64,000 bases of DNA from Candidatus Nomurabacteria bacterium (GCA_020632015.1 JACKGI010000001.1:156949-220948), one strand, 5' to 3'. Shown: positions 1,287 to 54,288, counted from the first letter of the stretch. The notes: a model not told the origin generated them from the sequence alone. Numbers and translations: made by a program.

Positions 1287-1600
1287 ACAGTAAGACCAAC
1301 TGTCTTTGCGGTGTTTGTATTAGTATCTTTCTCAGATTGTACGAGCAGGAACGCAGCTGTAAAAAATGCAGCTAGTGCTAGATAGAAATTTATTGCTAAT
1401 GCACCTATGCCTAGAAAGAAGATTAGTATAGCGATAGCTCCCTTTGATTCCTTTTTCATATTGAAATTATAGATTTGTGGTAGGAGCGGACACACAAAGC
1501 CCGCTACTAGGAAGGCCGAGGCCTCTACGTCAGTTTCCCAACGCAACGACACAATCGCCCTAATAACGGGTTCTCTATGATTGTGTCGATTTAAGACCAT
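1223..1600 (-). CDS. small integral membrane protein (hypothetical)
   Basis: 125-aa ORF with 3-4 hydrophobic helices. It overlaps the next gene by a few codons, in an operon-like arrangement. Confidence 0.4.
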   Translation of the reverse strand: MVLNRHNHREPVIRAIVSLRWETDVEASAFLVAGFVCPLLPQIYNFNMKKESKGAIAILIFFLGIGALAINFYLALAAFFTAAFLLVQSEKDTNTNTAKTVGLTVWVFIWVSVAGVLLGAYALSH

Positions 1601-1836
1601 GCCACCGATTACTCGATGGTTTAGGTCCCGCCCATTACGGACTAGTTGTCTTTGCCATAGTAGCTTATAAGTGTCGAAAACACCACTTTAGACACCCTGT
1701 CGTAGCTGTCTAACTGTCATAGATATAGGGTTGTTTTTAATAGTTTGTTGCAGAAAAACACCAAAAAAGAGCTTGAAGTGGCTAGCCGTGTGCCAAGACG
1801 ACTAGTTTTTATTTTCACTGTAGGTAAAATCTACTG

Positions 1837-3794: not shown

Positions 3795-5543
3795 ATGCAA
3801 AAGGAGCGACCAAAAACATGTTTAGCGAGTGCTCGTATTAGTAGCGCTCAGCAAATGGCAGGGGAGAGTCTAGACGACCAGGTCCGGGCTATTAAACAAG
3901 CGGCGGGACATAAGGGTCTAGAGATTCTTCCTGGTGGTGAGGTTGCGACTGAGATATTTACCGGAACGAAACGGCGGCCGGTATACGAAGAGCATATTCA
4001 GTACATCAAGGATAATCCTGGGAAGGTAGGCTATTACTTAATCCGTTATATCGACCGCTTTACTAGGGCCGGAGCATCTTCATACAACGAGATGAAGAAA
4101 GAGCTGGAGGAGCTTGGTGTTGCGCTGATAGACACAAACGGAATCATCCAAGAGTCACGCAACATGCCAGAACTTGCCGAGCTTGGTTTTGAGTATGAGT
4201 GGAGTAAAGAATCGCCAAGTGACATGACAGAGGTGATGTTGGCCACAACCGCCAAGCAGGAGCGTGACACTATTCTTAAACGAACCATTCCAAAACAAAT
4301 TGCCTACACCCAGAAAGGTTTTCAGATTGGTCGGCCTGATGATGGTTTTATGAATCATCGGACTCAAGTGGGAACACAGATTCGTTTTGTGCAGATTCCA
4401 GACCCGAAGCGTGCACCGTTTATCCAAAAGATTTTTGAGTTACGTGCCGCCAATAGACACACTGACCGAGAAATACTTCATATTGTGAATGAAGAGTTAG
4501 GCTTTCGGACCAAGAAGTTTCATCGCTGGAATAAGACACATACAGCGATCATTGGGGAAGGTGGTGGTAAGAAGCTGTCCATAAAACAGCTTCAGCGTAT
4601 TTACCAGCGGCCAGCCTATGCAGGTGTGCTTTGTGAGAAGTGGACCCACAATAAGCCTATTAAGGCGCAATGGGATGGACTGGTGAGTATTGAGCTTTGG
4701 AACAAGGCAAACCGCGGCAAAATCTACATCAAAGAATATGGTGATGATTTGTTAGAGATTCTGTACGACTACAAGACAGAGAGGCCGGTCTTTAAGCGTC
4801 TTCGTTACAATCCAGAATATCCATTCAAGTGTGTTTGTTGTCCTGAGTGTGGCAAACCTCTAAAGGGCAGTGCTCCACGGGGTAGAAAAGAAACATATCC
4901 GCGGTATCACTGTGAGCGTGGCCATAAGTCATTTACGATTGATCGGTCCCAAATGGATGAGACAGTCGGAACTTTCCTAGATAACGTGGAGTTTGATGAT
5001 GACTACACAAAGGTGTTGGAGGAAGTATTGGTCCGTAAATTACGTAAGAGACAACAGGATATTGTGCAGGAGTCAAAGAATCTGAATGAACGTGTGGCTA
5101 TGCTGAAGGCACAGCAGGCGAGTACACTCAAGGCACTTATCACTACAGAGAATCCAACCATCAAAGCGATGCTCGAAAAGGAACTTGAGAAAGTAGTGGT
5201 TGATATCAAGAAAGCTGAGTCGGTCCGGTTCTCAGTTGATCTCACTGAAGACAATATTGCTGAGTTGGTTAGTTACGCGAGGAAAATAGTGGAATCACCC
5301 AAAGAAGTGTTGATAGATAAAGACAATCCGCTCCGCCAGAAGCAGTTATTCAAGCTTTTCTTTGAGGACCTTCCAACCTATGAAGAATTGGATAGTGGAA
5401 CCGCTAAAAAACGCTTTCTTTTCAACAGGAATTGTATCGTCGAGACCCCTCAAAATAGTGAGAAATCCCATCAAGGGCGGCTACCGGGAATCGAACCCGA
5501 ACTATCGGTACCACAAACCGATGCACTAACCGTTATACTATAG
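3795..5543 (+). CDS. large serine recombinase (phage-type serine integrase)
   Basis: N-terminal resolvase catalytic domain with a catalytic Ser motif (ASARISSAQQ) and a YIDRFTRAG motif. It is followed by a recombinase domain, a Zn-ribbon (CVCCPECG...YHCERGH) and a long coiled-coil. The last 23 codons run antisense across tRNA-His. Confidence 0.8.
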   Translation: MQKERPKTCLASARISSAQQMAGESLDDQVRAIKQAAGHKGLEILPGGEVATEIFTGTKRRPVYEEHIQYIKDNPGKVGYYLIRYIDRFTRAGASSYNEMKKELEELGVALIDTNGIIQESRNMPELAELGFEYEWSKESPSDMTEVMLATTAKQERDTILKRTIPKQIAYTQKGFQIGRPDDGFMNHRTQVGTQIRFVQIPDPKRAPFIQKIFELRAANRHTDREILHIVNEELGFRTKKFHRWNKTHTAIIGEGGGKKLSIKQLQRIYQRPAYAGVLCEKWTHNKPIKAQWDGLVSIELWNKANRGKIYIKEYGDDLLEILYDYKTERPVFKRLRYNPEYPFKCVCCPECGKPLKGSAPRGRKETYPRYHCERGHKSFTIDRSQMDETVGTFLDNVEFDDDYTKVLEEVLVRKLRKRQQDIVQESKNLNERVAMLKAQQASTLKALITTENPTIKAMLEKELEKVVVDIKKAESVRFSVDLTEDNIAELVSYARKIVESPKEVLIDKDNPLRQKQLFKLFFEDLPTYEELDSGTAKKRFLFNRNCIVETPQNSEKSHQGRLPGIEPELSVPQTDALTVIL

Positions 5544-5548
5544 CCGCC
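5475..5548 (-). tRNA. tRNA-His (anticodon GTG) with a G-1:C73 pair
   Basis: Folded by hand. G-1; acceptor GCGGCTA/TAGCCGC; U8. D-stem GTAT/GTGC. Anticodon stem TCGGT/ACCGA with loop TTGTGGT (GTG). T-stem TCGGG/CCCGG with loop TTCGATT. Discriminator C pairs with G-1, which is diagnostic of tRNA-His. CCA is not encoded. Confidence 0.8.
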
Positions 5549-47780: not shown

Positions 47781-48482
47781 ATGTCTAGTAGGGGTCAAAA
47801 ACTAACCGACCGAGAACAACGAGTAGAAGATTGGTTTGAGCTACCAATGATGCTGGTGACAGCGCTTTTGGTGGTCACTTTAATGATTCCAATTATCATG
47901 AGTCTGCCTGCTGTGTGGGTTAGAGTTTTTGCTACTATAAATTTCGTAATTTGGTTCGCTTTTTATATTGAGTTATTTGCTAAATTGTATGTTGCAAAGA
48001 GTAAACTTGACGCGCTAAAACGAAATTGGTGGTTGGCAGTGATTGCTATCGCTCCGCTATTTTTGCCACTTAGGCTCATGAGACTATCTCGGTTAATTGG
48101 TTTAGTAAGATTTTTACGTCTGCAAAAAGCAGTTTCCAAAATGCGGAGTAGTCTCCGTGAGCTAATCTACAACATCGAGTATATACTGATTACCTTTACG
48201 ATATTTATTTTCTGCTCAGCTTTTATAATGTGGCAAATTGAAGCTCACTTTGATGGTTCAATAATTTCACTAGCGGATGCTTTGTGGTGGTCAGTCATTA
48301 CCATTACAACAATTGGTTACGGAGATGTTATTCCCACTTCTGCTGAAGGGAAGGTAGTAGGGGCGATTGTTAGTCTACTTGGTACCATCTTGTTTATGGT
48401 TTTTGTGGCCAGAGTGACCACATTGTTTGTTCATGATAAAGACATCGACACCTTGAAAAGAATGATAAAAAATAAAAAGTAA
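47781..48482 (+). CDS. voltage-gated potassium channel family protein (Kv/KvAP-like)
   Basis: Selectivity filter TTIGYGD. The S4-like helix has Arg/Lys at every third position (LRLMRLSRLIGLVRFLRLQK). 5-6 TM segments. Confidence 0.7.
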   Translation: MSSRGQKLTDREQRVEDWFELPMMLVTALLVVTLMIPIIMSLPAVWVRVFATINFVIWFAFYIELFAKLYVAKSKLDALKRNWWLAVIAIAPLFLPLRLMRLSRLIGLVRFLRLQKAVSKMRSSLRELIYNIEYILITFTIFIFCSAFIMWQIEAHFDGSIISLADALWWSVITITTIGYGDVIPTSAEGKVVGAIVSLLGTILFMVFVARVTTLFVHDKDIDTLKRMIKNKK

Positions 48483-48549
48483 GATCCCGATTAGACAAGT
48501 GTTTTATTTAGTGTTTTGGTTTTGTAGCCAGTAATAGGCCCTTTTTCAG

Positions 48550-48558
48550 TGATATAAT
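48550..48558 (+). promoter_or_regulatory. extended -10 promoter element TGATATAAT
   Basis: Exact TGATATAAT about 33 nt upstream of the ATG at 48591. Confidence 0.45.
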
Positions 48559-48590
48559 CAAGAAAGTATTATAAATAATAAATTATTTTT

Positions 48591-49262
48591 ATGGGCTACA
48601 ATGTTTTTGGTTCTCTGGAGCAGTCGATGATTGCCCTTTGGGTAGATATCATGCGTTTTCTACCAGAGTTGTTAATGGCCATTTTGGTCTTGGTTGTTGG
48701 TTGGATTATTGGAGGAGTAGTAAGTGGAGTGGTGCGTAAGGGGTTCAAGGTCTTACGTCTTGATGATGCTCTTGATAAAGCAGGTGTTGATTCCTTGTCA
48801 CAAAAAGCTGGTTACGATTTTAAGCCAGGTCATTTTGTGGGCGCACTAGCAAAGTGGTTTGTTATTATCGCTTTTGCGTTGGTGGCGTTTGACATTTTGA
48901 ACCTTGGTTCAGTCACTATCTTCGTTAGAGAAGTAATACTTGGTTACTTACCAAATGTATTTGCAGCGGTACTAATTTTGTTCGCGTCAGTATTGATTGC
49001 TAATGTAGCAAGCAAGACTTTGGCGGCAGCTCTTCGAACAGGGGGTGGTAGCCGGCCTGATTTCTTTGGCAAGATTGCTTACTATCTAGTGATTGCCTTT
49101 GGTATTTTGGCGGTAATGAATCAGCTACAAATCGCGGATGAGTTAGTCCAAACACTGTTTACAGGAATTGTATTTGCACTGTCACTCGGTATTGGTCTAG
49201 CTTTCGGTCTTGGCGGAAAGGAAACAGCCGCACGATATTTGGAAGATTTGACTCGAAAATAG
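48591..49262 (+). CDS. membrane protein with repeated conserved-TM-helix segments (MscS N-terminal-like; hypothetical)
   Basis: Repeated amphipathic/TM helices each followed by a basic segment (VRKGFKVLRLDDALDKAGVD). No MscS beta domain. Terminator at 49281-49307. Confidence 0.3.
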   Translation: MGYNVFGSLEQSMIALWVDIMRFLPELLMAILVLVVGWIIGGVVSGVVRKGFKVLRLDDALDKAGVDSLSQKAGYDFKPGHFVGALAKWFVIIAFALVAFDILNLGSVTIFVREVILGYLPNVFAAVLILFASVLIANVASKTLAAALRTGGGSRPDFFGKIAYYLVIAFGILAVMNQLQIADELVQTLFTGIVFALSLGIGLAFGLGGKETAARYLEDLTRK

Positions 49263-50489
49263 TTATTCTTTTACGGAAAGAAAACCCTCCAATTTGGAGG
49301 GTTTTCTGCTTATCAGGTAACTGCGTATAGCTGTGGAAAAGATGTTGATAAAATCACACTATATTATCCAGATAGAAGGCTTGACTTTATTTTCATTTCC
49401 TATAAGATAGCCATCACGTATTTATGAGTTTTGAACAGAAAGCAACGTCGTAGCAAGTAACATCACTCGTTGATTTTTACTTGCCGCGAGAAGCGGCTTT
49501 TTTCTTCACAAACTTAAGGGGGTACGCGATATTTGACAATCACATATTCAAGAGGACAGATTGATAAGATCTGTCTTCGAAAAGTCCTGCTGTGGAATCG
49601 ACGCCCGGCAGGCAAATTCCCGTGTGAAAATTCTAAAGAATTTTCACACGGGAGTAGGTAGAGTGTCGGGAAATTAGTTTTCCGACCTAATTTTCGAGGA
49701 GCCTTTGGCGACTATGAAAATGGAAGTGCCCTTGTGGCGCTCGGAAGGTCTTTTCGTCCCCGACACTCAAACACACACACGCACCTTACTGACACTAGCA
49801 AGCGCCAGTAAGGTGCAACAGACCGGAGTATGTATCTCCGGTCGACACTCAACGGTTATGACGTAAAAATCATAACCACAAATTATACAGCGGTGTATAA
49901 CGTTCCCTACGGGAACGAAGGGTGTATGGTGGATGCCTTGGCTTCAAGAAGCGATGAAGGACGTGATATGGCTGCGATAAGTTTCGGGGAGGTGCCAAAT
50001 AACCTTTGATCCGGAAATGTCCGAATGGGGAAACCCCACTGTCATCGGCAGTGACTCTTGTATGAGAGAGCGTACCTAGGGAAGTGAAACATCTCAGTAC
50101 CTAGAGGAATAGAAAGCAATATACGGAAATTTCTTTCTGAACAGATGCATTGCATCGTGTTCAGGACTTGTTCTGAACATTGGTGCGATTGCGCCATTAT
50201 GTTCAGGAAGAAGTTTCTTGCGATCCCCTTAGTAGCGGCGAGCGAAACGGGGACAGCCCAAACCGAACATATTTATATGTTCGGGGTTGTAGGGCGGAAT
50301 CAGCATTTAGTTGCGTAAAGTTACAAAATTGATATATAGAAAAACACGTTGGGAAGCGTGACCCCAGTAGGTAATAGTCCTGTATTCGAAATGTATCAAA
50401 CTTTATTGGTCCCGTTCCTGAGTAACCCGAGACATGAATAGCTCGGGCGAACCCGCCAGTACTAACTGGCAAGGCTAAATATTCTTGGA

Positions 50490-50535
<46 letters not shown>

Positions 50536-51097
50536 GGAGAGGGGAGTGAAATAGATCTGAAACCATACATCTACAAGGAGTCGGAGCCTTTCGGGGCGAC
50601 GGCGTGCCTATTGAAGAATGAGCCGGCGAGTCTATCTTTGTTCTTTGTCTAAGTGGCAACCCCACGGAGGCACAGTGAAAGCGAGCGTTAATAGCGCGAA
50701 TATAGAGCAGGGATAGGACCCGAAGCGGGATGAGCTTGCCATGAGCAGGGTGAAGCGACTGTAATAGGTCGTGGAGGCCCGAACCGGTTGGCCGTACAAA
50801 ACCATCGGATGACTTGTGGTAAGGAGTGAAAAGCTTATCGAATTCCGTAATAGCTGGTTCTCTCCGAAACAGCTTTAGGGTTGGCGTCGCGTGTTCCCAC
50901 TGGGGGTAGAGCACTGGAAAGAAAGAACAGGGAGAAATCTCGTCTTTCTTATCAAACTCCGAATACCAGTTGGTTAAGAGCGCGGCAGTTAGACTATGGG
51001 GGCGAAGCTCCATTGGTCAAAAGGGAAACAGCCCAGACCGCCAGTTAAGGTCCCTAAATATATACTCAGTGCAAAGTGAGGAGGTGAGGATTCCTCA

Positions 51098-51132
<35 letters not shown>

Positions 51133-51215
51133 TAAAGATAGCGTAATAGCTCACTGGTCGAGAGTCCTTGCGCCGAAAATGATCGGGGCTCAAGTATATT
51201 ACCGAAACTGCGGAT

Positions 51216-51440
51216 TCGCACACTTCATTGAGGAAAAGTAAATCAACAAACAACAAAAGAGGTTTGTTATGAGTAAATTAAGAAGCAAATTTAACAAATG
51301 GGTGAGTACTCATCCATGGCTAGGAGCATTCATTTTTGTTCCAGGTATACCAATGTTATTTTTCCTGATTCTTTTCAGTCTTCCTAAAGTATAGGAATTT
51401 CCTGAGGATTCGTCCTCGGGTCCTCAATGAAGTGTGCGAG
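51216..51440 (+). other. intervening sequence (IVS) replacing the helix-45-type hairpin of 23S rRNA; carries a 41-codon ORF
   Basis: An extended perfect stem ttcgcacacttcattgagga / cctcaatgaagtgtgcgag flanks about 185 nt of AT-rich, non-rRNA-like sequence. E. coli has a short hairpin between ACCGAAGCUGCGG and GGUAGGGGAGCGUUC at this position. The ORF at 51269..51394 (MSKLRSKFNKWVSTHPWLGAFIFVPGIPMLFFLILFSLPKV) has an SD aagagg 7 nt upstream. Confidence 0.55.
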
Positions 51441-52182
51441 TGGTAGGAGAGCGTTCTTCGTTGCGATGAATCCGAGGCGGGAGCCGAGGTGGAGCACGGA
51501 GAAGTGAGAATGCCGGCACAAGTAACCGCAAGGCAGGTGAGAACCCTGCCCGCCGAAATACCAAGGTTTCCTTCGCGATGGTGATCAGCGAAGGGTTAGT
51601 CGGTCCTAAGGGAATCCCGAATGGGGGACTCGATGGATAGCAGGTTAATATTCCTGCACACTGTTATGTTCCTATGGAGGGACGGAGAGTTGTACTTATT
51701 GCCCCTTATTGGATTGGGGTTGGAGCTATGAGCGTGTCATTTAGGTAAATCCGGATGGCAATAGCGCGAGTAGAGTCTAAAGGTGAGGCTACGGCCGATC
51801 CGATTATAAGGAGCACTCTTCCGAGAAAAACTTCGTTTGGGTTAAGCATAATGGTTCCGTACCGCAAACCGACACAGGTGGTAGAGTCGAGAAGACTAAG
51901 GCGAACGAGTGAGAGGTCCTCAAGGAACTCGGCAAAATAGCGGCCGTAACTTAGGGATAAGGCCCGCCACTACATCTTCGGGTGTATGTGGCCGCAGCGA
52001 AAGATTTCCTGCCGACTGTTTACCAAAAACACAGCTCCCTGCAAACACGAGAGTGGAAGTATAGGGGGTGACGCCTGACCTATGCCGGAAGGTTAAATAC
52101 GGGGGGTGGTATGTATTTATATGTACTGCTGGACTGTATAAGCCCCGGTAAATGTCAGCGATAACTATAATCGTTCTAAGGT

Positions 52183-52388
52183 TCAGCGCACTGTCCAATA
52201 AACAGTACGCTGAAGGATTGGAACGGTTATAGGGTAAACAGCCTAGCCATAGTTACCTTGTGATGCAGAAATGCACACATAATCCAAATGCAACCAACAA
52301 GAGACCAAATGTTGCACACCTTAACATTCAATTTATTGAGATGATGGTGAAGATAGAGTCCTATTGTGCAAGCGAATAGGGGATATAG
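52183..52388 (+). other. group-I-like intron in 23S rRNA domain IV (about E. coli position 1931; no ORF)
   Basis: The flanking exons read ...CGTTCTAAGGT | AGCGTATTTCCTTGTCGGGTAAGTTCCGAC, which is contiguous E. coli-like sequence (CCUAAGGU|AGCGAAAUUCCUUGUCGGG). The 206-nt insert ends in G (omega-G) and follows an exon U. It contains aagatagagtcc, resembling the group I P7/S element AAGAUAUAGUCC. Confidence 0.5.
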
Positions 52389-53030
52389 AGCGTATTTCCT
52401 TGTCGGGTAAGTTCCGACGTGCACGAATGGCGTAACGAGTGGGAAACTGTCTCGAGGACCTGCTCGGTGAAAATACAATCCCGGTAAAGATGCCGGGTAC
52501 CTGCAGTTAGACGAAAAGACCCCAGGAGCTTTACTGTAGCTTCGTATTGGGGCTATTGAATTTATGCGTAGCATAGTGAGGAGACTTTGAAGCGGGCTTT
52601 TGGGTACCGTGGAGTCGTCAGTGAAATACTCACCTTAATTTTGGTAGTCTCTAACCCGCTGGGAAAAACCCATCGGAGACAGTGCGTGGCAGGCAGTTTT
52701 AGTGGGGCGCTACCCTCCCAAATTGTAACGGAGGGGTCTCAAGGTTGGTTAACCGCGAATGGAAACCGTGGTGATAGTGTAATGGCATAAACCAGCTTGA
52801 CTGTGAGAAGTAGATTTCGAACAGATACGAAAGTAGAGCATAGTGAACCGATGGTTGGCTTTAGATGCCGCCGGAGATTACCCGATAAAAGTTACCCTGG
52901 GGATAACAGGCTAGTTGTGCCCAAGCGTCCATAGCGACGGCACAGTTCGGCACCTCGATGTCGGCTCATCTTATCCTGGGGCTGGAGCAGGTCCCAAGGG
53001 TTTGGCTGTTCGCCAATTAAAAAGATACGC

Positions 53031-53064
<34 letters not shown>

Positions 53065-53190
53065 CTCCTATCTACTGCAGGCGTCGATTTTTGAGGAGAG
53101 TTGTTCCTAGTACGAGAGGACCGGAATGAACGAACCTCTGGTCTATCGGCTGTCACGCCAGTGGCACTGCCGAGTAGCTATGTTCGGAAT

Positions 53191-53223
<33 letters not shown>

Positions 53224-53586
53224 AACTCCAAGATTAGAAATCATTAAGTCCCCTGAGAGATTATCAGGTTGATAGGCACTAGGTGTACGCACAGTGATGT
53301 GTTGAGCCGAGGTGTACTAATTGGACGTAGTTTCCTGTAGGGAACGTTGTACATCAAAACCTTAAAATTGCAGCATTTCGGTGTTGCGCTGGCGAAAGAT
53401 TTTTGTCACTGGGCACAAGCCCCGTTCCAAAAATCTTTCTGGCGCGCCTAGAAATGCAGGCAATTTGTAAGATTTTGAACTGTGTAATTTGATGAGTGAA
53501 GTGTTACCTAATGCTCGGCTGAAAGGTCGAGCTCGAAGAGTCTCTTGAATATGTGAATTTTCAATCGCGTGAAATGGTAATTTCAC

Positions 53587-53724
53587 GGGGGTATAGAGTG
53601 TCAGTAGTTTATTCAAGGGGTACCACTTGGATGGACAAAGAATACTGGTTCTCGCGAAGGGCCTGAGCTCGCTACGAGTGCGATCAAGCAAAGGCGGTGG
53701 GTTCAATTCCTGCTACCCCTACCA
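53587..53724 (+). ncRNA. tRNA-like small RNA in the 23S-5S spacer (canonical T-arm, acceptor and encoded ACCA; 5' part non-canonical)
   Basis: The 3' end folds as T-stem GTGGG/CCTGC with loop TTCAATT, acceptor 3' strand TACCCCT, discriminator A and CCA. Complementary AGGGGTA/GGGGGTA lie at 53616 and 53587. D and anticodon arms could not be folded canonically by hand. Perfect 19-bp inverted repeats (53560-53578 and 53774-53792) bracket the unit. Confidence 0.3.
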
Positions 53725-53922
53725 TTTACGAGATGTTGTTAATCAGAGTATAAGGACTCACGACAACATCTCACCATTTCACGCGATTGAAACGAGTTGA
53801 ATACACTAATCAGAATCGAATCTTTTATGTTGGTGCTGAGGGATTGAAATTGTCTGGTAGACAATTTCAAGGGTACACAACTAAAAGTTTTTTAAAATCA
53901 AAATCGAGCCTTTCAAGTTGGT

Positions 53923-54027
53923 GCTTTGGGGGAAGGGGTACACCCGTTCTCATTCCGAACACGGCAGTAAAGTCTTCTACCACCGATGGTACTCCGCAAG
54001 GGGAAGAGTAGGTAGGCGCCAACTTGA
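53923..54027 (+). rRNA. rrf: 5S rRNA
   Basis: CCCGTTCTCATTCCGAACACGGCAGTAAAGTC is the conserved 5S loop B/C region. Helix I tcaagttggtgc / gcgccaacttga. Processing-stem inverted repeats at 53881-53911 and 54030-54056. Confidence 0.8.
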
Positions 54028-54115
54028 AGAGCTTGATTTTTAAAAACTTTTAGACCGTTCGCCCTAAAGGACTAATGTTTGTGTTCAATCGCAAGCTCTT
54101 GAACAAACATTGAGC

Positions 54116-54186
54116 ATTCCGAACACGGCAGTAAAGTCTTCTACCACCGATGGTACTCCGAAAGGGGAAGAGTAGGTAGGCGCCAA
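54116..54186 (+). pseudogene. partial duplicate of the 5S rRNA 3' two-thirds
   Basis: 71 nt identical to 53951-54023 except for one substitution (c to a in ...tactccgAaagg...). It lacks the 5' strand of helix I. A terminator follows at 54209-54236. Confidence 0.6.
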
Positions 54187-54288
54187 CATAAAGCATTTGA
54201 TTCCGACAAAAAGCCACCGCGAGGTGGTTTTTTTATTTGCTACCTTTTGCACAAAGAACGTACATCAAATCCTAATAAGGGTTATAAT

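Follow-up and report, generated by a model that had tools for sequence, protein, structure and literature searches.

Genes for tRNAs are known components of bacterial rRNA operons. In E. coli, where the order is 16S-tRNA-23S-5S-tRNA and rrnH ends in 23S-5S-tRNA-Asp, these tRNAs are functional decoders and lie between 16S and 23S or after 5S rather than between 23S and 5S. Their release depends on RNase P and 3' processing, with RNase III also cutting flanking helices. Duplexes of ~20 bp are of RNase III substrate size, and flanking duplexes excise 16S and 23S in many bacteria; an acceptor/T minihelix with ACCA is the minimal substrate of RNase P, RNase Z, 3' exonucleases and the CCA-adding enzyme. 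Several RNAs use parts of this shape without decoding. The t-elements, reportedly a feature of plant mitochondria, and the mascRNA-type ends of MALAT1 and MEN-beta are non-decoding, and their acceptor/T mimic lets RNase P and RNase Z set the ends of their neighbours. YrlA is said to be a bacterial Y RNA with a tRNA-like module, and mt-tRNA-Val/Phe is a structural RNA of the central protuberance of the mammalian mitoribosome. For CPR bacteria, tRNAs or ORFs between rRNA genes have been mentioned only generically (Lui et al, 2021; PMC8172020), and our full-text searches turned up no account of CPR 23S-5S spacers that contain a tRNA or a tRNA-like element.

Here, we analysed such an element in a 64,000-nt stretch of Candidatus Nomurabacteria bacterium (GCA_020632015.1, JACKGI010000001.1:156949-220948; "the window"), whose host lineage is Nomurabacteria-like, of the Paceibacteria group of the ultra-small CPR/Patescibacteria. 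Like the tRNA genes of bacterial rRNA operons, it is a tRNA-shaped unit beside rRNAs and presumably co-transcribed with them, but it has its own 20-bp enclosing helix and a companion hairpin, and has lost the D loop and the anticodon loop. Its conserved parts suggest an end-defining acceptor/T mimic like that of t-elements and mascRNA; those flank mRNAs or lncRNAs in organelles or eukaryotes, whereas this element is bacterial, sits in an rRNA operon within a long helix, and has a predicted cleavage. As in YrlA, distant 5' and 3' segments form a long terminal helix around a tRNA-like domain with a T-arm; however, the acceptor-like stem of YrlA is closed, with no free CCA, and its genes adjoin rsr rather than rRNA operons. 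With tmRNA it shares an acceptor stem, a T-arm, ACCA and reduced D and anticodon regions, but it is only 138 nt long, with no tag reading frame, pseudoknots or G3:U70. Finally, the mitoribosomal mt-tRNA-Val/Phe is, like the element, encoded between rRNA genes, and is made in a fixed ratio to them, as the element would be, but at our locus a normal 5S is still there and the body of the element is unconserved.

For comparison, we scanned GTDB genomes with a 5S 18-mer and JGI metagenomes with a 20-mer from the 3' terminus of 23S, which yielded ~25 related operon ends (given L numbers below) with ~17 distinct spacer types, from Paceibacteria/Nomurabacteria MAGs and metagenome contigs. The nearest genome, L001, was reached via its identical L7/L12 protein; its rRNA block is 98.5% identical to that of the window and its element 100%, so it is uninformative on constraint. 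A near-identical rRNA block occurs in Candidatus Nomurabacteria bacterium HK-STAS-PATE-28 (GCA_020632035.1), which places the organism in the Paceibacteria group of CPR/Patescibacteria.

The 23S rRNA of the window is 3438 nt long, against 2925 positions in the Rfam model, and carries several insertions, five relative to E. coli when mapped against rrlH (Table 1). Rfam found no 16S rRNA within the 64-kb window, and the flanking genes encode L10, L7/L12, a type IV pilin-like protein, FtsW/RodA and a VWA protein, the gene for the last being downstream and conserved. Between the Rfam boundaries of 23S and 5S lies a spacer of 573 nt, somewhat shorter than the ~590 nt of the initial annotation, which had rightly called it unusually long: most of 34 circularised CPR genomes have 55-314 bp between 23S and 5S (Lui et al, 2021; PMC8172020), and the spacer is therefore long for its group. 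The sequences flanking 23S form 24 contiguous pairs (RNAduplex), and the long hairpin at the start of the spacer has homologous, sequence-divergent counterparts in L053, L106, L107, L100 and L115. A search of the + strand of the spacer (53344-53916) for terminator-like sites was negative; the first terminator-like hairpin downstream comes after the last 5S piece. The single promoter-like match on that strand (53787-53816) is weak, at 9 of 12 consensus positions, and promoter-like matches in the spacer are no commoner than in shuffles. An antisense ORF (53362-53706, 114 aa) has no Pfam match and overlies non-conserved sequence.

The 5S region is itself unusual. The complete 5S, with its own processing stems, is nested within a second, insertion-interrupted 5S-like gene, whose outer stem shows compensatory changes between the window and L001. 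The same nested layout is present in L053, and the tail of the operon also bears insertion-laden partial 5S copies. These nested, insertion-laden copies next to the element are at least as odd as the element.

Table 1 Features of the 23S-5S region, in window coordinates.
Feature	Position	Strand	Basis or remarks
23S rRNA	49906..53343	+	Rfam LSU_rRNA_bacteria, 2391.7 bits
23S extended helix-1/processing stem, 3' strand	53331..53355	+	pairs with ~49890-49915
Long imperfect hairpin at spacer start	53372..53455	+	inverted repeats I5, I8, I9; MFE fold
Motif TGAATATG	53546..53553	+	just 5' of outer helix
Outer helix, 5' strand TTTCAATCGCGTGAAATGGT	53559..53578	+	inverted repeat I3
Single-stranded leader AATTTCAC	53579..53586	+	U-rich
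tRNA-like element	53587..53724	+	138 nt; acceptor stem, T-arm, discriminator A, encoded CCA
Acceptor stem, 5' strand GGGGGTA	53587..53593	+	pairs with 53714-53720, G1:U72
D-arm equivalent	53596..53653	+	constrained and unconstrained folds; GAG/CTC stem 53596-98 / 53651-53, inserted hairpin 53600-53649
Anticodon-arm equivalent	53661..53695	+	constrained fold; 35 nt, irregular
T-arm GTGGG / TTCAATT / CCTGC	53697..53713	+	sequence reading; stem strands 53697-53701 and 53709-53713, loop 53702-53708
Acceptor stem, 3' strand TACCCCT, with A73 and CCA	53714..53724	+	sequence reading; strand 53714-53720, A73 53721, CCA 53722-53724
3' hairpin GAGATGTTGT...ACAACATCTC	53730..53772	+	inverted repeat I13 and fold; fills the gap from CCA to outer helix
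Outer helix, 3' strand ACCATTTCACGCGATTGAAA	53773..53792	+	inverted repeat I3
5S flanking processing stems	53881-53924 / 54016-54053		inverted repeats I2, I4
5S rRNA, complete inner copy	53917..54024	+	Rfam 5S, 70 bits
Intrinsic-terminator-like hairpin and T run, operon end	54208..54233	+	

The element had first been noticed as a canonical tRNA 3' half bracketed by perfect 19-bp inverted repeats. The repeats are indeed perfect (100% complementary in an inverted-repeat search), with one base more per arm, 20 nt, and they enclose a ~194-nt core made up of the element and a second hairpin. The 3' half (T-arm, TACCCCT, A and CCA) reads as described, so that, as in a canonical tRNA, there are a 7-bp acceptor stem with an unpaired discriminator and CCA, and a T-arm with a 5-bp stem and a 7-nt loop that fits T54-T55-C56-R57-A58; position 3:70 is G:C. 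The D and anticodon regions had been called non-canonical, and the folds agree. Instead of a 3-4-bp stem with a 7-11-nt loop containing G18 G19, the D-arm equivalent has a 3-bp stem, preceded by U8-A9 in the constrained fold, that closes an inserted hairpin of ~50 nt, and this insert has no similar sequence elsewhere in the window or in the loci other than the close relative L001 (= L091). In place of an anticodon arm with a 5-bp stem, a 7-nt loop, U33 and a conserved anticodon, there is an irregular arm with a GCCU/AGGC base, internal loops and a 7-nt tip (UACGAGU), separated by a single nucleotide from the T-arm; the constrained fold contains no 7-nt anticodon loop with U33. Complementary 5' acceptor strands had also been reported, and two are present, GGGGGTA at the start of the element and AGGGGTA at 53616-53622 (inverted repeat I16), inside the D-region insertion. 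The second was rejected as the acceptor strand, since 53587 is where the leader and position +1 of relatives align, and downstream of 53616 there is no D or anticodon arm that would be acceptable.

The 251-nt unit folds at -100.2 kcal/mol, compared with -63.7 ± 4.6 for shuffles (z = -7.95), into the outer helix, an acceptor-closed multi-branch RNA and the second hairpin (53730-72). When the acceptor and T-arm pairs were forced and the remainder left free, the element adopted a cloverleaf-like four-way junction at -47.8 kcal/mol versus -52.6 for the MFE without constraints. By the nearest-neighbour model, the MFE fold thus beats the cloverleaf-like one by 4.8 kcal/mol and breaks the T-arm, and the acceptor stem is retained in it. 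By a rough hand estimate, the combination of a T-arm, CCA and a 7-bp acceptor complement would arise by chance ~0.004 times per 64-kb window. Considering this estimate, the fold z-score and the recurrence of the architecture in relatives with compensatory changes, a chance origin is excluded. The 17-nt T-arm is identical in genuine phage tRNAs, mostly Arg and Thr, and a scan of viral contigs for the T-arm pattern gave nothing beyond ordinary phage tRNAs and att-like ends, so the T-arm of the window is simply a normal tRNA T-arm.

By model-based criteria, the element is outside the tRNA family, and it is likewise neither a tmRNA nor a Y RNA. In the spacer, Rfam gave no tRNA at the gathering score, and the 1-kb region gave none with E relaxed to 10; ARAGORN, with and without its intron option, gave no tRNA and no tmRNA in the spacer; and no other Rfam family (including tmRNA, Y RNA and group I intron) matched the spacer with E as high as 10. 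The adjacent genes encode rRNAs and are not those of a Y RNA, with rsr sought among the flanking ORFs. The sole tRNA that ARAGORN found in the window, outside the spacer, is a tRNA-His whose CCA is not encoded, so the encoded CCA of the element is no genomic habit.

These searches bear on the suggestion of the initial annotation that the element might be an intron-containing or permuted tRNA. The intact acceptor, T-arm, discriminator and CCA would fit such a tRNA, as would the introns known in CPR tRNAs and rRNAs (PMC8172020) and the group I introns that we found in the 23S of relatives. However, neither ARAGORN with its intron option nor the Rfam tRNA model (E up to 10) gave a hit; there are two inserts, of 50 and ~29 nt, too short for a group I intron (the Rfam model is ~250 nt), one in the D loop and the other replacing the whole anticodon loop rather than lying at position 37/38; there is no candidate anticodon with U33; and the anticodons of homologues conflict (UGG, UGA or none). 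Permutation is contradicted by the order of the parts, as 5' acceptor, T-arm and 3' acceptor follow one another normally. A functional decoding tRNA of either kind is effectively ruled out.

What relatives that share the 23S 3' end and the 5S have at the same place is decisive. In all spacers of the window's group, TGAATATG is followed by the same helix (consensus TTCAATCGCGTGAAATGG / CCATTTCACGCGATTGAA), whose content varies. In L058, it is a cloverleaf tRNA-Pro(UGG) with CCA (Rfam, 50.8 bits). Further cloverleaf tRNAs, with aberrant anticodon loops, are seen in L103 (class I, anticodon UGA, 75.7 bits), L105/L109 (9-nt anticodon loop, discriminator U), L084/L096/L113 (neither U33 nor CCA) and L081 (97 nt, with a 29-nt anticodon loop located where the window has its irregular arm). 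Other spacers hold stubs of 99 nt (L106), 71 nt (L107/L111), 63 nt (L053) and 47 nt (L097), which keep the acceptor stem, a T-arm-like hairpin and ACCA; Rfam did not match the stubs of L106, L107, L053 and L097 at E up to 5. The helix of L112 holds a small hairpin only, with no tRNA-like part, and the hairpin that the sister group (L098-L104, L115) has there is shorter and contains unrelated inserts. In every relative with a tRNA or tRNA-like unit, a further hairpin occupies the stretch from CCA to the helix's 3' strand, and the MFE folds of the homologues, computed independently, give the same three-way junction of outer helix, acceptor-closed tRNA-like arm and 3' hairpin. The U-rich leader ending in ...TTTCA(C) is common to L106, L107, L053 and L081.

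We then assembled by hand a core alignment of 9 distinct sequences, consisting of the outer strands, acceptor strands, T-arm and ACCA. In these, pairing is 100% in the acceptor stem, 96% in the outer helix and 93% in the T stem, and double changes affect all 7 acceptor pairs, 7 pairs of the outer helix and 3 of the T stem. Overall, 96.7% of cells are paired, a value that none of 500 column shuffles (84.7 ± 1.2) attains, and slid registers give 36-46%, a contrast that is favoured by the picking of segments around the hypothesised structure, though the ACCA and the conserved leader left little freedom in this. The initial annotation had likened the repeats to the processing stems around 23S and 5S and had pointed to conservation of the stem and T-arm as bearing on its reading. 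The 23S and 5S stems are real and the helix is conserved with compensatory changes, as is the T stem. The T-loop sequence has decayed in L106 (TGAACAAT), L107 (TGAAAAT) and L053 (TAATAAT).

Constraint is also uneven along the spacer. In pairwise comparisons among the four closest lineages (the window, L106, L107 and L053), the outer strands are 0.67-1.0 identical, the 5' spacer 0.59-0.74, the T-arm with the acceptor 3' strand and CCA 0.59-0.79, and the 3' hairpin 0.76-0.88 (window, L106 and L107 only), while the interior from acceptor to T-arm, at 0.23-0.45, equals shuffled sequence. ACCA is kept in 7/9 distinct sequences, and L105 has UCCA. At the level of sequence comparison, these patterns demonstrate purifying selection on the outer helix, the acceptor stem, the geometry of the T-arm and the CCA.

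The same data bear on whether the spacer was simply invaded by a MITE, as a ~194-nt core with perfect 20-bp inverted repeats at its ends could suggest. Against this, the outer-helix motif occurs once in the 64-kb window, with no second occurrence, the interior of the element has no other copy in the window or in any locus, and flanking target-site duplications are absent. Moreover, all relatives have the repeat at one and the same place in the spacer, and it has undergone compensatory substitutions, which imply selection at the RNA level. An inserted MITE therefore has almost no chance of being correct, and we treat it as effectively ruled out.

The element very probably descends from a tRNA-Pro in the spacer, judging by three lines of evidence. 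First, C1:G72 with A73, the acceptor signature of bacterial tRNA-Pro, is present in 7/9 distinct elements. Second, L058 carries the anticodon UGG. Third, a genuine tRNA-Pro(GGG) elsewhere in L096 (CGGGGTATAG...TACCCCGACCA) resembles the element of the window (GGGGGTATAG...TACCCCTACCA). Together, these support the descent well, and the view of the initial annotation that the RNA is tRNA-derived is borne out both by the covarying acceptor and T stems with the retained CCA and by the tRNA-Pro(UGG) among the positional homologues. Its further proposal, that the element is excised as a separate RNA, is plausible, and the evidence speaks neither for nor against its idea of a tRNA-like regulatory RNA.

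The element is, however, non-decoding, the D loop having become the ~50-nt hairpin and the anticodon arm the irregular 35-nt arm. In homologues, the anticodon differs (UGG or UGA) or its loop is aberrant (9 nt, 29 nt or lacking U33), and the interior cannot be aligned; the anticodon drift indicates that decoding is not under selection. ARAGORN labels the positional homologues as Pro, Ser, Gln, Leu and Asn from these "anticodons" alone.

Of the explanations considered, the likeliest, to which we give about an even chance, is that the element aids the cutting of the rRNA precursor as a processing module in cis, combining an RNase III-type helix with a substrate for RNase P and 3'-end enzymes. 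The 23S, the spacer and the 5S would be transcribed as one RNA, the 20-bp outer helix would form, and an RNase III-type double-strand-specific RNase would cut it, parting pre-23S from pre-5S. RNase P may then cleave at 53586/53587, with the 3' side trimmed to CCA at 53724, which would release a tRNA-shaped by-product of 138 nt. A processing role is likelier than decoding because the anticodon is lost and the part recognised by enzymes is kept. The near-perfect, covarying duplex (20/20 bp in the window) is what would be expected of a processing helix, and an acceptor/T mimic that has no decoding parts, borders other RNAs and has its conservation confined to acceptor, T-arm and CCA is what would be expected of a t-element-type substrate. 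On the other side, the tRNA-like part is dispensable in some relatives, as in L112 and in the sister group L098-L104 and L115. [quoted passage not shown]

L112 and the decayed T-loops also give weight to the main rival of the processing module, a pure relic. Here, a dead tRNA-Pro would be trapped in the apical loop of the helix, untouched by tRNA enzymes, and its acceptor would merely close the insert to let the outer helix, the true functional element, form. That helix exceeds everything within it in sequence conservation and persists in L112 without a tRNA-like insert, the interior turns over freely, the T-loop sequence decays in several lineages, and the insertion-laden partial 5S copies in the operon tail would also fit. 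A mere closing stem, however, need not keep a constant length of 7 bp or stack on a stem of 5 bp that has a 7-nt loop, nor would it account for a single-stranded ACCA kept in 7/9 lineages (with UCCA in an eighth) amid this turnover, or for the conserved leader before position +1. We consider a pure relic possible but rather unlikely.

The conserved acceptor and CCA could instead serve a product that acts in trans, as a stable, non-decoding tRNA-like RNA, stoichiometric with 23S and 5S, that is either ribosome-associated or a non-translational aminoacyl donor. It is co-located with 23S and 5S ahead of one terminator-like hairpin, selection acts on the acceptor, T-arm and CCA, the T-arm of the window is fully canonical, and the 5S genes of the clade are themselves aberrant. 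Yet its body is unconserved even among close relatives, which is hard to square with a specific partner; it is missing from L112 and the sister group; a normal 5S is present; there is no G3:U70; and the C1:G72 acceptor element of ProRS is lost in the window, which has G1:U72 instead. A trans-acting RNA is accordingly improbable. Its extension to a clade-specific Paceibacteria family of stable tRNA-like RNAs, acting in trans at a fixed ratio with 23S and 5S, is a little more doubtful again; members of such a family may serve as an extra ribosome-associated RNA or as a CCA-bearing acceptor outside translation.

The translation systems of CPR/Patescibacteria are small and unusual: their rRNA genes are unlinked and carry insertions, some ribosomal proteins are missing, and their RNase P RNAs are divergent. 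Elements like the one described here are overlooked by annotation pipelines, or their intermediate forms are misnamed by anticodon. If the processing-module reading is true, a clade-wide, non-decoding spacer tRNA that keeps its minihelix within a covarying helix would parallel, in bacteria, the "tRNA punctuation" and the t-elements of organelles, and the element would offer a concrete substrate for the RNase P and RNase III of CPR bacteria.

The 23S-5S unit of the window is unlinked from 16S rRNA, which was not found anywhere in positions 1-64000; most Paceibacteria are reported to have 16S unlinked from the 23S-5S unit (PMC8172020). Beyond the rRNA genes, Rfam recovered a candidate sRNA, LOOT RNA, and ARAGORN identified a single tRNA in the 64 kb, tRNA-His(GUG), whose gene does not encode the 3' CCA. 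The 23S gene itself is 3438 nt long and carries five inserts, located after approximately positions 227, 272, 1163, 1185 and 1931 of E. coli rrlH. Group I introns are present in the 23S genes of two relatives (L058 and L107; L-numbers denote related loci from GTDB genomes and JGI metagenomes), and no Rfam match to a group I intron was obtained anywhere in the window.

Compared with its closest relative (L001, MAG HK-STAS-PATE-28, GCA_020632035.1), the window has a nearly identical rRNA block (98.5% identity) and a nearly identical L10-L12 block (97.4%), whereas the flanks of these blocks diverge (window 47781-49262 versus L001 11494-13952 and 19486-20133). The order of the ion-channel and MS-channel genes is swapped between the two, and blastn could not align these genes of the window with those of L001. 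Relative to the window, L001 also has a pilin gene insertion upstream, and the 5S region is separated from the VWA gene by an IS200-like Y1 transposase gene in L001 and by a pilin-like gene in the window.

The 23S-5S spacer starts with a long imperfect hairpin, which represents another structured insert specific to the clade, in addition to the tRNA-like unit. Hairpins of different sequence occupy the homologous position in L053, L106, L107, L100/L108/L114 and L115, with none there in L058, L081 and L084. Another structured motif, GTCCAGGAAT...ATTCGGACATAAATTC(R)C, is known from relatives only and does not occur in the window. It recurs within the spacer hairpin of the sister group (for example, L101, L102, L104 and L100), where it takes the place held by the tRNA-like unit in the window's group, and in other relatives (such as L107/L111 and L098/L099) it lies downstream of 5S. 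It could represent either a conserved small RNA or a hairpin that is mobile.

RNA features of the window (positions in the window).
Feature	Position	Strand	Remark
LOOT RNA, candidate sRNA	1512-1627	-	Rfam, 75.1 bits (gathering score 46.4)
tRNA-His(GUG)	5475-5547	-	ARAGORN
23S insert	50120-50217		versus E. coli rrlH
23S insert	50263-50292		versus E. coli rrlH
23S insert	51214-51316		versus E. coli rrlH
23S insert	51339-51441		versus E. coli rrlH
23S insert	52183-52388		versus E. coli rrlH
Long imperfect hairpin	53372-53455		5' start of 23S-5S spacer
Outer 5S-like copy, 5' piece	53808-53842		
Inner complete 5S	53917-54024	+	
Outer 5S-like copy, 3' piece	54115-54206		

The complete 5S of the window, together with its processing stems, is enclosed by a second, interrupted 5S-like gene (53808-54206). 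The 5' part of this outer copy runs from GTTGGTGCTGAGGG through a 27-nt hairpin to AGGGTACACAAC, followed by the inner 5S and its stems, after which it resumes with ACCGTTC, a 54-nt hairpin and CATTCCGAAC...GCGCCAAC. Its 5' flank is complementary to its 3' flank (27 nt, 81%), and within this duplex the window differs from L001 by several compensatory changes. Possible readings of the outer gene are a pseudogene, a 5S that has expanded, or what is left of a 5S-carrying element. The same nesting was observed in L053, with two more hairpin inserts within the outer copy. Partial 5S copies also occur 3' of the complete 5S in L001 (19040-19240, hairpin-interrupted) and downstream of the 5S in L106 (segment 760-930, with hairpin inserts), and the motif ...CGCTCACTCGGAAAT... 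recurs in L053 and L106. Extra 5S fragments laden with insertions are a trait of the clade.
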